NCBI GenBank assembly: GCA_050575255.1
Contig: JBNZDD010013429.1
Span: 129,732-193,731, forward strand
Source: Harriotta raleighana
Lineage: Eukaryota
DNA length: 64,000 nucleotides
Direction of reading: 5' to 3'
Made by a program: the position numbers. Shown one piece after another: positions 39,001 through 60,000 of this stretch; the stretch's first letter is position 1; the number at the start of each line of letters is the position of its first letter.

Positions 39001-42000
39001 GAATTAACATTGTCAAGCCTAGATGTGATATAAGCAAGAAGCACACATTTGGTATCATATTTATTCCCTGGGAACAAATATGTAACAAATTTTAAATGGA
39101 TTACATTTGTTTTCCTTTGTAGTTTCAAATATCCTTGCCTCTGTTTCCTGACGTTTATTTTCTCTGGCAGACCAGTATCCAGTAAAATGACTGAGATGCA
39201 CCTGGGTGATGTTGTAGGCGGAGGAACAGACTTGCCTGAGGAGCCTGATACACAAAGAAAAGAAAAGGAAGAAGAGATAAATAAACGTGGACAATGGGGC
39301 AACAAATTTGAGTTTCTTCTCTCTGTGGGTGGCAGCATAATTGGTTTCAATACGATTTTTCAGTTTCCTGGACTTTGTTTCCGTAATGGAGGAGGTTTGT
39401 ATCAAGGAAATTTTTATACCTGTTTAATCCTGTTTACAACCAAGGTTCTGGGCTAGGATTCCCTAGAGTGTGAAGGGGATGTTGTGCAAAGCTATTTTGT
39501 CATGGTTTTTATTTATTCGAGAGTTTGCAGTAAGGAGCCAGCATCAGAATTTAGGATTTGCTGCAAAAATATGACTAAGGATTATATAATTCCAATTCAG
39601 GAGAGCTTCACCTGACCTATATATGGTCTGGAAGAGCTTTATGGAGTCCTGCAACATATTGGTTAGACACTCTCCTCACAAGCGAGAGCATCGGGGTATG
39701 ATTCCCAGGCAGGGCAGTTTTGTTGCACCACACACCTCTGTTAACCTAATAGTAAACAGGAACCTGGTTCTTAGTCAATTGGTGATTCACTTTCCAAGAG
39801 TAATAATCCCTTTAAAAAAAGTTCAATCCACTCACTCAAACCACAATTGTTTGTGGGTCACTACTGTGTGCGATTGGCTATGACGTTTCACCAACAACAT
39901 ATAAAGATAATCGCAATACAGCATATTCTGTGAAGCACTTTGGGACATCTCAACAATGTGGTAAAACGCAAGGATTATTATAGGGATTATTTTAGGCATT
40001 TCACAGCCCTCTGACCTCAATATTGATTTCAACAATTTCAGACCATAACAGTTCACCTTCCTCCTCCCCCTCTGCTGTGCCCATTTACTGAATCATCTGG
40101 GACGCAGACACACCTTTTCTCTCAAATGCAAAATACTGGATTTTTGAAACAAAAGCACAAGGCACTGAGAACACATAGCGGGTAATGCATCTGATCAGAT
40201 AGAAAAGAAAATAATATTATTATGATGCCATCAGGCCCAGTGGCCAAAGTATCAAGCAGTAGCTCAAGACACAATACAAACCATTTTAGGGATCCTTGTC
40301 CTTTATTTCGGTGTATTTGCAGCTTGATTATAAGTGTCAAATTTTGATCAAAAGCGGACACCCAGCGGACACCCAGCACTATATTTTGGATAATTCAAAC
40401 CAGAGAATCTATGTCAATTCCATGTAGAATTTTCCATGCTTGAAATGCCCCCCCACACTTTCACCAAAGGGGAAAGCGCTTTTCTAATTCTAATGTGTAT
40501 CTGGCACAGTTTAGCAAGTCCCAAGACTTGGGAACTCCACAGGACACATTACAGCTGGAATTAACTAGCTAAAACTGCATAGATTCCCATTGAAAGCTCC
40601 GTCCAGCAAGTTTCCCCCTCCTTGTCCAACTCAGACCAGTCACCCCATTAAAGCTTTGCTTTACAGGGTGAACAGGAGCTGAGTGGGAAGAATCCCTGTG
40701 TCTAGTCACCGCTCCTCCCCTCCAAGTCCAGCTGATCTGGTCTGTCATCAGCAGTGCCCTGGAGCCACCTTGCTGAGGATCTGTAACATCAACACACAAA
40801 ACTGACTTGATTGTAACATTCCTTGGCCAATTAATGTCACCAGCCAGAATCATGGAGGCCCTCCTTACATAGTTATACTTATATAGTGCCCTCCACACTG
40901 GACGTCTGGATAGTGTCTCAGGGAACCAAGTTCCCAACTGCCTGTTCCAGTTGCTGCTGTATTCACCTGCATTCATTATGTATATTCTGTGAAGCGCTTT
41001 GAGATATCCTCGCAACATGAAAGCTCTTTATATCAAACGACTGATAGAGAAAAAGCAAGATTGAGAGGATGGCATTGGATTGTTTATTTCATAAGCAATA
41101 AAAATGGAATAGCTATTCTCTTGCTTGCTTCATTCTGGAGACTGTTGCCAATTTGTCTAGAGGAAAGAACTGGCAGATTCCTAATTCTGGGGTGAAATGT
41201 TAATAATAATTGCCTTGTCTTTGAATTGTCTCAAAGCGCTTCACAGAATATACTGTAAAGTGAATTGACTGTATACTTGTGGGGGAAACACAACAGCCAA
41301 TTGCCAGTCAGTGAGACACTCATAAGCTTTAGGAATCATGCTTGAGTCTTTGTATTGCAGCTTTAATAGACATTTAAATGAATCACAGCAGTTTTCAATG
41401 GTAAGCTGAAGCTTTTCACAGCTCTCCTTAGTGAGAGAGGAACACACAAAATTTAGTGTGACCAGTCACAGGAAACAAGATGTTTGGTCCATGAAATAAC
41501 GATGATTTCCATGAAGAGGCCCGAATGGGGAAAGAAAAGCTTAGAGACAGCAACTGGAAGATGCAAAACGAGAATGATCAAAAAGCCATATGTGCATTTC
41601 AATTGTTTCTCAATTGTTCATTGAAGCTCAGCCAAGCTCTCCCCTCGGAAACATCATTAATGTTCTTTCAGAGAAGCGCTCACTGTTCCTGTTATCTTTA
41701 ATGAGTTATCTTTAATGAGAGTTCTATTTGTAGGAACCCTGTAGCCCGGTCCCGGGATCCGTTATTATGAAGCGTTCTGAGACGCTGTCCAGGGTGGAGG
41801 GCACTATATAAATCAAAATTATTGTTGTGGTTAGTGATTAGAGCACTCACCTTGCAAGCAAGGGACCCGGGTTTGATTCCAGGCAGGGCGAAACCTTGGG
41901 CAAATTTCCTTATTCTACACGCCTAATAATAATCCCTCAAGAAAAAAAACAACAATAATTTGACCATTCAACCCACAACTATTCATGGGACACTGCTGTG

Positions 42001-57000: not shown

Positions 57001-60000
57001 CTTATTGATCTAGTTTCCATATGTAATGGCCTAGTCAATGTCCTGCNATTGACCTAGTTTCCATATGTAATGGCCTAGTCAATGTCCTGCATCCATATAT
57101 TTCCTAAGAATGGTAAATGTACCATTTTTTCCACAGAGGATACGCCATCTTACTGCCCCTGTTGACAGCAAGCCACAGTTGGATTTCAGGGTTCTTCCAT
57201 TGGACACCATGAACAGTCAACATTGAAAACAAAACACTTATAAAACATGATGCACCAAACGTTAACATTCAGTTTCACCAAAAAATAAAGGCAGTATGGA
57301 ATGTTTGACAACAAATCCCGAATTTGAGTCGCTTTAAAATCCGCAGTTAAGTCATACCACAAAGCACGCTGCTGCCAGAAGCTCCTGTTATTTGCGAGTT
57401 TTGTGTTCTTGTGTGGCTGATTTGTTTTCATTTAGTTTTCTTTCCCAGCTTGAAATTGTCTCACAAATTGGCTTAAGAAGGGGAAAAAGCACAACCACTT
57501 GCAATTCATCTTTTATTCAGATGGAAAATAACACCCCACCATCACCACCGTCTTTCTCCCCCTCCCCCTGGCTCGCCCCCGGGATCCGTTGTTGTGAAAC
57601 GCTCTGAGATGCCTTCCAGCTTGGAGGGCGCTTAAAAATCCAAGTTGTTGTTATTGAAGCACTTTGAGACATCTAGAAGACATGAAAAGTGCTATATCAA
57701 AATGCAAAGACTATTATTGTATTATTATATCTTGAATATTCTTAAACAGCCATTACTGCTGTTTTTTGAAGAGTAATATGTAATAATCAAACAGTTAATC
57801 AAACAGTCCAGACAAATTTGAAGTAGAAATATAATCTAACAATATCAGTGTATATCAGTATTTGCAAAAAAAATTAAGAAAATTGTCAAAACAAGTAAGG
57901 AAAATGAGCAGGGATCATCAACTGACCAGACAATGGACTTCAGAAGAGCAGCAGCAGCAATAACAACAACTTCGATTTATAGAGCGCCCACAACGCTGGA
58001 CAGCGTCTCAGAGCGCTTCTCAGAGCAGCGTTCCAAAGAGAAAAAGAGAGAACATTTATATAGCGACAAAGGGCACAAGAGATGGGGGAAATCAGAGAAG
58101 AAAGACTTATTTGATGTAGAGCATATGCTCAGAGAGGATGAATGTTGTTCATGTCCCCATTAGCCTTCATACTCCGCGATTACAGTCTCCAAAGTCCACA
58201 AGTTGTCCAGCACACACTGTATGTAATCTTGAAAACTAATTAACAGTAGTAACCAGGTGATGTTTTTGTAATAATGAAAGTTGTTGCATTGTAATTCCTG
58301 TAATTCCAAAGTTGAATATGGCTAATGTATACTGCCATAGATATAAAACAGAATTCATTGCAACACTAGTTACTGTTGCATTGGCAATCATTATTTTCAC
58401 ATGTATAAATGAAATTAAATAAATAGATGCCTTCAGTCAACAGAACCATTCTATTTCATACTCAATATCTTAACTGTGAATCAAGTGTAGCAAGAAGTGT
58501 TCTTACCATACAACATTTTACAGACTTGTTTGCGTGCAACAAAATTGTGACTATGGTGCTGCAATACAATTGTGGAGAATGACTCACAGCCAATTAAAAC
58601 ATCTCATCTTGGAATATGCCATTAACCTAATTCCAATTGATTTCCTCCTATACCTTCATCACCTCAAAACTTGCTTTCTCAAATGTCCTTCTCAACCAAC
58701 CTTTTCAGATCAAACTCTCACGAGCTGCAAACAATAAATAATAGAAAACGCCACAATTCCCAAGCTCTGAATACTGTACATGAACGTGTGTTCACAAACT
58801 CAGAATCCAGGTAATACTTTCTAGCAATTATTGTCCCAAGCCTCAGAGGTTCCTCAAAAGCCATCTCGGTTAATTTTTACATGTGTGTGGACACTAAACT
58901 CTCTATCTTTGCATCCACCCTCAACTCAAGGTCCACTGTTGTCATGATGGATTGTCTGTCAGACATCAAGTTATGGATGAGAGTTGACTTTCTCCAATTA
59001 AATGACAAACAGATTGAGGCCCTCCTGCTTGGCTCCTTTCAGTACCTCATCGAAGGCCCTGACAGCATCACTATACAGCATCACTACGCATACTCCACCT
59101 CAATGACCCAGTACAGAACCTTGGTGTCTTATTTGACCCTCATCAGTCTTTTAAATTAATGTCCTTACCATAATCTATTTTGCCTTTCCCTACCTCTGCA
59201 TCGATGCCCACCTCCGCCACTACCTCTGCCATCAGACCGACAAAGACCCTCATCCATGTTTTCATTAAGTCAAGGCTTGACTATGCCAACTGCCTGCTCA
59301 CTAGACTTTCCAACTCTTTCCTCCACAAACTGCAGATTATTCAGAACCTTGCAGATCACCCCCCAGTCTTGCCCAGATTCACTGCCTCTCCATTCCCCAG
59401 AAGATCGAGTTTAAGATACTCGTTGCCAATGTTAAAGCTCTCCACAGAATTTCTTCCCTTTACCTAAGCAACCTACAAAAACGTTAGTCCCTCTGTTTGG
59501 CGGGCATTACCCTGGTCCATGTACCCCTTGACAGTTAAGACATTTTGTCTTTTTACCCAAACCCTCTGGAATTCTATGCCATTGTCCCTCCAACGTCCTC
59601 TCTTGCCTCCTTCAAACCTGCCTAAAGGCCTTCCTCTTTGACCGTGCCTTCAGTCATCCTACCACCTCCACACCCTTTGCCCTTGCCCTCCAGCCCTCTT
59701 GACTCCAATTACCAGAACGGGTGTGAGTTCTTGTCTGCCCAATGCCTTGGGATGCCCTCCTGAAATGAGAGGAGCTATATAAACTTCCAGTAGGTAGAGA
59801 AACAAAATTGTTATCAATGACAAAGCCATCTCAGACGATCATTTAATTCCCCTTAACTCCTCCACCCATCTCCACCCTGGAAAAAAATCTCTCCCCATTC
59901 CTTCTCCAGTACCCTGGAGTCATCTAAACACCTCCCACTCTGGGCTTCCTCTTGTAACAACGTAACCTCCCTGACTACTCTCCTTCACAACTCCCTCTCC

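Follow-up and report, generated by a model that had tools for sequence, protein, structure and literature searches.

An intact GAT-group SLC6 gene of Harriotta raleighana with altered ion-coupling and outer-gate residues

We analysed a 64,000-nucleotide stretch of the Harriotta raleighana genome (contig JBNZDD010013429.1; hereafter the window) with a focus on a single SLC6 gene that occupies positions 39187-57226 of its + strand. The gene is open from start to stop with all of its splice dinucleotides intact. The encoded protein is a member of the GAT (GABA-transporter) group of SLC6 by descent but, as judged by its residues, departs from the mechanism by which this family couples transport to ions. 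Its altered sites predict that canonical Na+/Cl- driven uptake of GABA (gamma-aminobutyric acid), betaine or taurine has probably been lost. We give an even chance to the reading that it is a BGT1-like SLC6 protein, maintained by selection, in which the parts that define canonical Na+/Cl- coupled symport have been replaced. The residues in question are near-invariant from bacterial LeuT to the human transporters, and at several of them one mutation is enough to abolish transport by GAT1 or BGT1. If the gene is both intact and selection-maintained, it offers a natural experiment on how far the LeuT fold can dispense with its machinery for ion coupling, and if our reading is true, its product could be the first protein in the vertebrate GABA-transporter group that is ion-independent or does not transport. 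Should the gene prove unexpressed, or be disrupted in related species, it is no more than an unusually well preserved relic. A canonical paralogue next door serves as a built-in control for comparative work. A search of the open-access literature returned no description of the gene, which does not show that none exists.

The gene and its ion, substrate and gate sites

Six-frame reading followed by boundary reading resolved 14 coding exons, with the ATG at 39187 and the TGA at 57224-57226. The six-frame reading also placed on the + strand three of the motifs quoted in a first-pass annotation of this DNA, GQEL not being among those sought. Summed over exons, the coding sequence is 1752 nucleotides long, or 583 codons and the TGA. 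Its whole codons include no in-frame stop and its exons are free of N letters; single N letters inside the gene are confined to introns 2 and 13. The 13 introns all follow the GT-AG rule and have pyrimidine-rich acceptors, leaving the 26 splice dinucleotides intact. Seven codons are split by introns and, read by eye, all of them are sense (V, G, V, E, S, G and G). The one shared by exons 7 and 8 (49900-49901 + 51205), which follows a conserved NNCY motif, encodes Ser (AG+T) in this gene versus Arg (AG+A) in its neighbour. The annotation had described 14 intact exons, intact splice sites and an intact reading frame, and this description holds in full.

The two introns with N letters also carry two-copy tandem duplications, at 43354-43484 in intron 2 (66-bp unit, 98% match) and at 57004-57092 in intron 13 (44-bp unit, 95% match), the latter ending about 45 bp upstream of the last-exon acceptor.

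The neighbour, a canonical GAT-group paralogue, was recovered when the window was searched with the exon peptides by tblastn, as 13 exons at 12471-31692 on the - strand; the same search did not find its last exon. It lies upstream and head-to-head, and the two start codons are about 7.5 kb apart. Splice phases are the same in both genes and exon sizes are equal except for exons 4 and 13. The two proteins are identical at 280 of 537 aligned residues (52%) and differ at 257 (48%). Searches against Pfam and solved structures were run with one exon peptide at a time. The SNF profile (PF00209; family cut-off 27 bits) matches 12 of the 14 exon peptides of the divergent gene, collinearly over profile positions 1-521 of 524 and with a summed score of 435.2 bits, and 12 of the neighbour's 13, with a sum of 584.4 bits. 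This match, exon by exon along the whole length, places the divergent gene in the SLC6/NSS family. Nine of its 12 matching exons individually exceed the cut-off; exons 9, 10 and 11 fall below it. Residues were numbered as in GAT1 from the ungapped coordinates of GAT1 chains 7sk2 and 7y7v, or from BGT1 (9lnm) plus an offset, and the same positions, including 22 key positions, were read in the divergent gene and in the neighbour. SNF scores below are given with the neighbour's score for the same exon in brackets.

Exon 1 (39187-39394, donor GT) carries the start codon, an acidic N-terminus and transmembrane helix 1 (TM1). It covers profile positions 1-36 with 31.6 bits (64.5) and matches BGT1 best (9lnm, 53.7 bits, E=1.7e-13). 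In this exon the GLGNVWRFPY of BGT1 and GAT3 has become GFNTIFQFPG, giving G65N, N66T, W68F and R69Q as the first-pass annotation had proposed, and L64F, V67I and Y72G, which were absent from its list. Exon 2 (42332-42466, bounded by AG and GT) encodes TM2, keeps Y86 and E101, and scores 58.0 bits (60.5), with BGT1 as its best solved match (57.8 bits). Exon 3 (45180-45320) encodes TM3 with the motif LNIYNI (Y140N) and the first cysteine of extracellular loop 2 (EL2); it scores 41.9 bits (59.0), matches GAT3 best (45.7 bits) and aligns with GAT1 125-170 ungapped. Exon 4 (46124-46181), a short piece of EL2 that is 30 nucleotides shorter than the neighbour's exon 4, contributes the second cysteine of this loop and a single N-x-S sequon and has no Pfam match. 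Exons 5 (46937-47069) and 6 (47846-47980) encode TM4 and TM5, score 51.8 (54.5) and 58.5 (65.8) bits, and are identical to the neighbour at 26 of 44 and 29 of 45 residues, respectively.

Exon 7 (49798-49901) encodes TM6 and scores 28.8 bits (50.0). It aligns ungapped with GAT1 284-317 and BGT1 283-316, and its best solved match is the creatine transporter (25.4 bits). It carries D287A, T290Q, Q291D and L300Q, the last at BGT1 position 299, together with Cys and Lys at BGT1 G300 and T303; F294, S295 and Y309 are kept. Exon 8 (51205-51329), encoding TM7, retains N327 and S328 and carries S331K, with 39.1 bits (43.3) and a best match to BGT1 318-355 (49.0 bits). Exon 9 (52293-52405) spans the end of EL4, where GPGL reads GQEL against the neighbouring paralogue as had been claimed, and TM8, where LGLD(SQ) has become LAFN(FQ), that is D395N and S396F. 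It scores 23.4 bits (52.9) and matches GAT3 at 27.4 and BGT1 at 25.6 bits. Exon 10 (53555-53692), with the end of TM8 and TM9, scores 26.3 bits (20.0) and keeps T400, E402 and D410; its numbering, D410 included, was placed through the neighbour alignment and by continuity. Exon 11 (54307-54409), encoding TM10, carries D451E and a Gly at BGT1 S457 and keeps the Glu at BGT1 468; it scores 19.4 bits (27.2), matches BGT1 and GAT3 equally well at 22.7 bits, and covers GAT1 443-475. Exon 12 (55375-55475), with intracellular loop 5 and the start of TM11, is the best conserved exon (26 of 33 residues identical to the neighbour; 28.7 bits versus 35.4). Exon 13 (55685-55852) encodes TM11, EL6 and TM12, is one codon shorter than the neighbour's, has a rewritten EL6 and scores 27.7 bits (51.3). 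Exon 14 (57137-57226, acceptor AG) holds the C-terminal tail and the TGA stop and, like exon 4, has no Pfam match.

Arranged by function, these changes fall on most of the ion, substrate and outer-gate sites. At Na1, two of the three side-chain ligands (N66, S295 and N327) are kept and N66 is replaced by Thr. At Na2, neither side-chain ligand (D395, S396) is kept, compared with both in the neighbour. The backbone positions of the two sites are all retained (G59, Ile at 61 and 62, and L392). Two of the four chloride ligands (Y86, Q291, S295 and S331) remain, the changes being Q291D and S331K, versus four of four in the neighbour. The outer gate of BGT1 is described as a hydrogen-bond network of R61, Y64, T289, Q290, D452 and S457 (PMC13620122); these positions read Q, G, Q, D, E and G in the divergent protein and are all standard in the neighbour, so that none of the six is kept against six of six. 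The R69-D451 salt bridge belongs to this changed network. The inner gate (R44-D410, W47 and Y309) is complete.

The substrate site is altered as well. The S1 set of G63, G65, L136, Y140, F294, S295 and S396, given as fully conserved across the GAT group (PMC10137170), is kept at four of seven positions, with G65N, Y140N and S396F. Both holders of the substrate carboxylate, the backbone NH of G65 and the hydroxyl of Y140, are thereby altered. Y60S falls at the position of BGT1 E52, which holds the quaternary amine of betaine (PMC13620122). BGT1 G300 and T303, reported as ligands of a putative third sodium site near Glu93 and Glu468 (PMC13620122), are the positions now occupied by Cys and Lys, and around them E93, W108, S122 and E468 are kept. 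At 297 and 400 the protein has the Gly and Thr of GAT1.

In all, the divergent protein has the standard residue at 12 of the 22 key positions and the neighbour at 21, its lone exception being Ile for L136; the neighbour's TM1, TM3, TM6, TM8 and TM10 motifs are standard. Since a canonical paralogue in the same window is standard at 21 of 22 positions, the changes are not a matter of chance. The substitutions that the first-pass annotation had listed (G65N, N66T, W68F, R69Q, Y140N, D395N, S396F and D451E) are all seen in alignments to solved structures. So are the residues it had listed as kept, R44, W47, Y309, F294, S295 and N327, and D410 follows from the neighbour alignment and numbering continuity. 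The rewriting extends beyond that list, to Q291D, S331K, two putative Na3 positions and every residue of the BGT1 outer-gate network.

Published mutants indicate what such changes do elsewhere in the group. In GAT1, R69K and R69K/D451E are reported to block transport, an aromatic residue in place of W68 to cost expression and function, and Q291S and Q291N to abolish uptake, R69 and Q291 being described as interacting (PMC10137170). In BGT1, Y133A and S395A abolish transport and G57S lowers it (PMC13620122). In GAT1, S331E and S331D render transport partly chloride-independent, and Na2 tolerates D395T and D395C (PMC10137170).

Could the odd residues be an artefact of a chimeric assembly, mis-called exons or sequencing errors? 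The window does contain single N letters, and introns 2 and 13 harbour the short tandem duplications. We nevertheless hold this to be highly improbable, given that no exon of the gene contains an N, that the odd residues are spread over seven exons (1, 3, 7, 8, 9, 11 and 13), and that splice sites are clean and exon sizes and phases neighbour-like. Errors, moreover, would not leave the frame intact.

Exon structure and nearest relatives both assign the gene to the GAT group. Solved-structure searches with seven of its exons (1, 2, 3, 7, 8, 9 and 11) returned SLC6 proteins only, and all best matches are GAT-group proteins. GAT1 was outscored by BGT1 or GAT3 in every exon searched and, within the E-value limits applied, was missing from the results for exons 2, 8 and 9. 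Over five printed exon alignments, counted by eye, the protein is identical to BGT1 at 114 of 200 residues, and to its own neighbour at 105 of 215 in the same exons. At the exon level both SLC6 genes of the window are about 45-71% identical to human proteins. One of two markers of the BGT1 lineage is present: the Gln at 299, described as specific to BGT1 with Leu in GAT1-3 (PMC13620122), is found here, and the Glu at 52 is replaced by Ser. The neighbour has Leu at the 299 position and, in TM1, Gly where BGT1 and GAT3 have Glu; its exons 1 and 8 match TauT, BGT1 and GAT3 about equally. By exon scores, then, the closest solved relatives of the divergent protein are BGT1 and GAT3, not GAT1. The first-pass annotation had taken GAT1 as its reference, which remains usable for numbering but is not the nearest solved relative.

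Where the change falls, and whether the gene is decaying

We compared the SNF scores of the two genes to ask where along the protein the change had fallen. The exons of TM1, TM3, TM6 and TM8 lose 32.9, 17.1, 21.2 and 29.5 bits relative to the neighbour, together 100.7 of the 149.2 bits lost overall, and exon 13, with EL6 and TM12, loses another 23.6. Exons 2, 5, 6, 8, 11 and 12 lose between 2.5 and 7.8 bits each, and exon 10 gains 6.3. The scaffold exons thus score nearly as high as those of the canonical neighbour, in agreement with the earlier statement that scaffold regions are well conserved. A related statement, that change is concentrated at functional sites, fares less evenly. It is borne out by the clustering of the SNF loss in the TM1, TM3, TM6 and TM8 exons but not by the 22 key positions, of which 10 have changed (45%), no excess over the average position (48%). 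We therefore dropped the notion that change is enriched at functional sites. The contrast that does hold sets these changes against the family-wide invariance of the key positions and against the SNF scores of the scaffold exons.

To gauge what neutral drift would produce, we simulated substitutions without insertions or deletions on the 550 whole codons of the neighbour, exon by exon, in 21000 runs. Already with 0.05 substitutions per site, stops were absent from only 3.2% of 3000 runs. In 7610 runs, 10 or more of the 22 key residues had changed, and not one of these 7610 was stop-free. Uniform neutral decay is ruled out as the cause by this result, which indicates that the changes in the divergent gene accumulated while something kept its frame open.

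A different kind of decay has to be weighed against a selection-maintained protein. The gene may have diverged for long under some constraint and now be dead or dying, unexpressed or recently inactivated, with a frame that has not yet been hit. Such a history would look identical to what we observe, and several features fit it: ten otherwise invariant positions are changed at about the rate of an average position, mutation of any one of several among them is enough to stop transport by GAT1 or BGT1 (PMC10137170, PMC13620122), and exons 9 (23.4 bits), 10 (26.3) and 11 (19.4) score below the SNF cut-off, as does the neighbour's exon 10 (20.0). Set against these are the 583 open codons with 26 intact splice dinucleotides, the failure of neutral drift to reach this many key changes with an open frame in any of 7610 runs, and scaffold exons that score almost as the neighbour's do. 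General features of the protein are also kept. Its hydropathy correlates with that of the neighbour at 0.80 over 404 positions, and both EL2 cysteines and one N-glycosylation sequon are still present. On balance we regard a dead or dying gene as unlikely. The first-pass annotation had argued for neofunctionalisation rather than decay; this is upheld as far as uniform neutral decay goes, and not with respect to a gene that functioned for long and died recently.

How the protein might work, and what weighs against it

With Ser60, Asn65, Asn140 and Gln300, the pocket of the divergent protein is more polar, and the carboxylate holders are gone. A polar solute that lacks a carboxylate is a plausible substrate on the strength of these residues. 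Our preferred mechanism is an ion-independent carrier, either a facilitator or an exchanger, for such a solute, in which fixed charges would take the places formerly held by ions. Lys331 and Asp291 could pair in the former chloride/Na1 pocket, because published structures show both positions in contact with one and the same chloride ion. A second Lys, at BGT1 303, would lie beside the conserved Glu93 and Glu468 of the putative Na3 site and neutralise them, Phe396 would plug Na2, and the outer gate would be rebuilt around Gln69 and Glu451. As a complete scheme, with built-in charges replacing the coupled ions, this is a long shot. The boldest guess at a substrate would be a methylamine or related osmolyte, given a probable origin of the gene in the betaine-transporter lineage. 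As a second option, the protein might be a non-transporting ligand sensor or partner subunit, which would rest outward-open because its outer gate is gone.

Alternatively, the protein could still be an ion-coupled symporter with another coupling and substrate, driven for example by one Na+ at a modified Na1 (Thr66, Ser295, Asn327 and backbone) or by H+ via a new network of Asp291, Lys331 and Glu451. Consistent with this, it keeps two of the three Na1 side-chain ligands, every Na1/Na2 backbone position (G59, Ile at 61 and 62, L392), E101 and the inner gate. Precedents exist in the literature, with D395T and D395C tolerated at the Na2 site of GAT1 (PMC10137170) and a Lys used for H+ coupling by ApcT (PMC6925253). 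But S396F removes a hydroxyl ligand from Na2 and adds a bulky side chain there, G65N and Y140N take away both holders of the substrate carboxylate, which in the GAT group serves to complete Na1, and the outer-gate network that closes over the bound ions is changed at all six positions. We consider retained ion coupling improbable.

Returning to a selection-maintained protein with replaced coupling parts, several points weigh against it. The case rests on one sequence of the gene. Because the key positions have changed at about the overall rate, they read as freed from constraint and not as demonstrably positively selected. Hydropathy at the 171 positions that differ from the neighbour speaks for it, with a correlation of 0.44 compared with 0.27 +/- 0.07 in neutral runs of similar extent, 3 of 500 of which reached 0.44, but this control also includes changes on the neighbour's constrained lineage. 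Between the two genes, the nonsynonymous divergence (dN) is 0.32 and the synonymous divergence (dS) is saturated at 1.29, which makes them old paralogues; the dN/dS ratio of 0.25 mixes both lineages, and we set it aside as a dating tool that can neither date nor exclude a recent loss of constraint. As regards the proposed mechanism, the Na2 site holds no basic residue, unlike the ApcT and CaiT precedents, and we infer the Lys-Asp pairing solely from the chloride contact that the two positions share in published structures. No substrate can be named, since E52, the holder of the betaine amine in BGT1, is Ser here.

Genomic surroundings and known systems

GAT-group genes adjoin one another in vertebrates, where GAT-1/GAT-3/TAUT and GAT-2/GAT-4 are described as tandem (PMC3849432). 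An adjacent SLC6 pair is therefore expected, and the pair in this window differs in being head-to-head, not tandem. Antisense within the neighbour's intron between exons 8 and 9 lies a retrovirus-like envelope frame (19529-20713, + strand), which matches the C-terminal part of Pfam TLV_coat (profile 325-545 of 560, E about 1e-22) and is uninterrupted over 394 codons from stop to stop, or 377 from the first ATG. None of nine further open segments near it matched a retroviral domain in Pfam, and a search of 12002-23400 revealed no direct repeat of 60 bp or more.

Introns of the two SLC6 genes also contain three Rfam tRNA matches, at 26307-26378 (+), 28795-28850 (+) and 56242-56313 (-). ARAGORN calls two of the three (Val-CAC and Ala-CGC). 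Most likely all three are heads of tRNA-derived short interspersed element copies, not tRNA genes. The + strand of 2500-10500, 36300-37300 and 58800-61700 holds many open segments of 75-166 codons, probably decayed interspersed repeats; ten segments drawn from the three regions gave no Pfam match. Of four other long open reading frames compared with Pfam, three had no match, and no synteny marker or flanking single-copy gene was recognised in the flanks. A weak Ras match in the frame at 60683-61144 (E = 0.022, below the cut-off) was taken as chance.

Among known systems, the closest point of comparison is BGT1/SLC6A12, the human betaine/GABA transporter (solved as 9lnm and others), which is the best or tied solved match for exons 1, 2, 8 and 11. 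The divergent protein shares with it Gln299, L129, N130, I53, I54 and an acidic N-terminus. It differs from BGT1 by E52S, by G57N, Y133N and S395F at the carboxylate and Na2 holders, by Q290D and S330K at the chloride ligands, by R61Q, Y64G, T289Q, D452E and S457G in the outer gate, and by G300C and T303K at the putative Na3 site. GAT3/SLC6A11, the best solved match for exons 3 and 9, differs from it at the coupling and outer-gate residues in the same way as BGT1 does. These residues also set it apart from GAT1/SLC6A1, the source of the numbering, with which it shares Gly at 297 and Thr at 400.

Among other transporters, NTT5/SLC6A16, a vertebrate orphan SLC6 protein, also departs at the chloride serine, with Leu at the S331 position (PMC10137170); it belongs to another subgroup, the amino-acid/orphan one, and is likened to the divergent protein here by description alone. 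Carriers of the LeuT fold that work independently of Na+ place a basic side chain where Na+ would bind at Na2, Lys158 in ApcT and Arg262 in CaiT (PMC6925253), and in the chloride-independent LeuT, Glu290 at the S331 position is reported to substitute for chloride (PMC10137170). ApcT, CaiT and LeuT would resemble the mechanism proposed here in having a fixed charge in place of a coupled ion, a likeness at the level of mechanism only. They are bacterial or belong to other families, whereas the new charges of the Harriotta protein stand at 331, 291 and BGT1 303, with no base at Na2.

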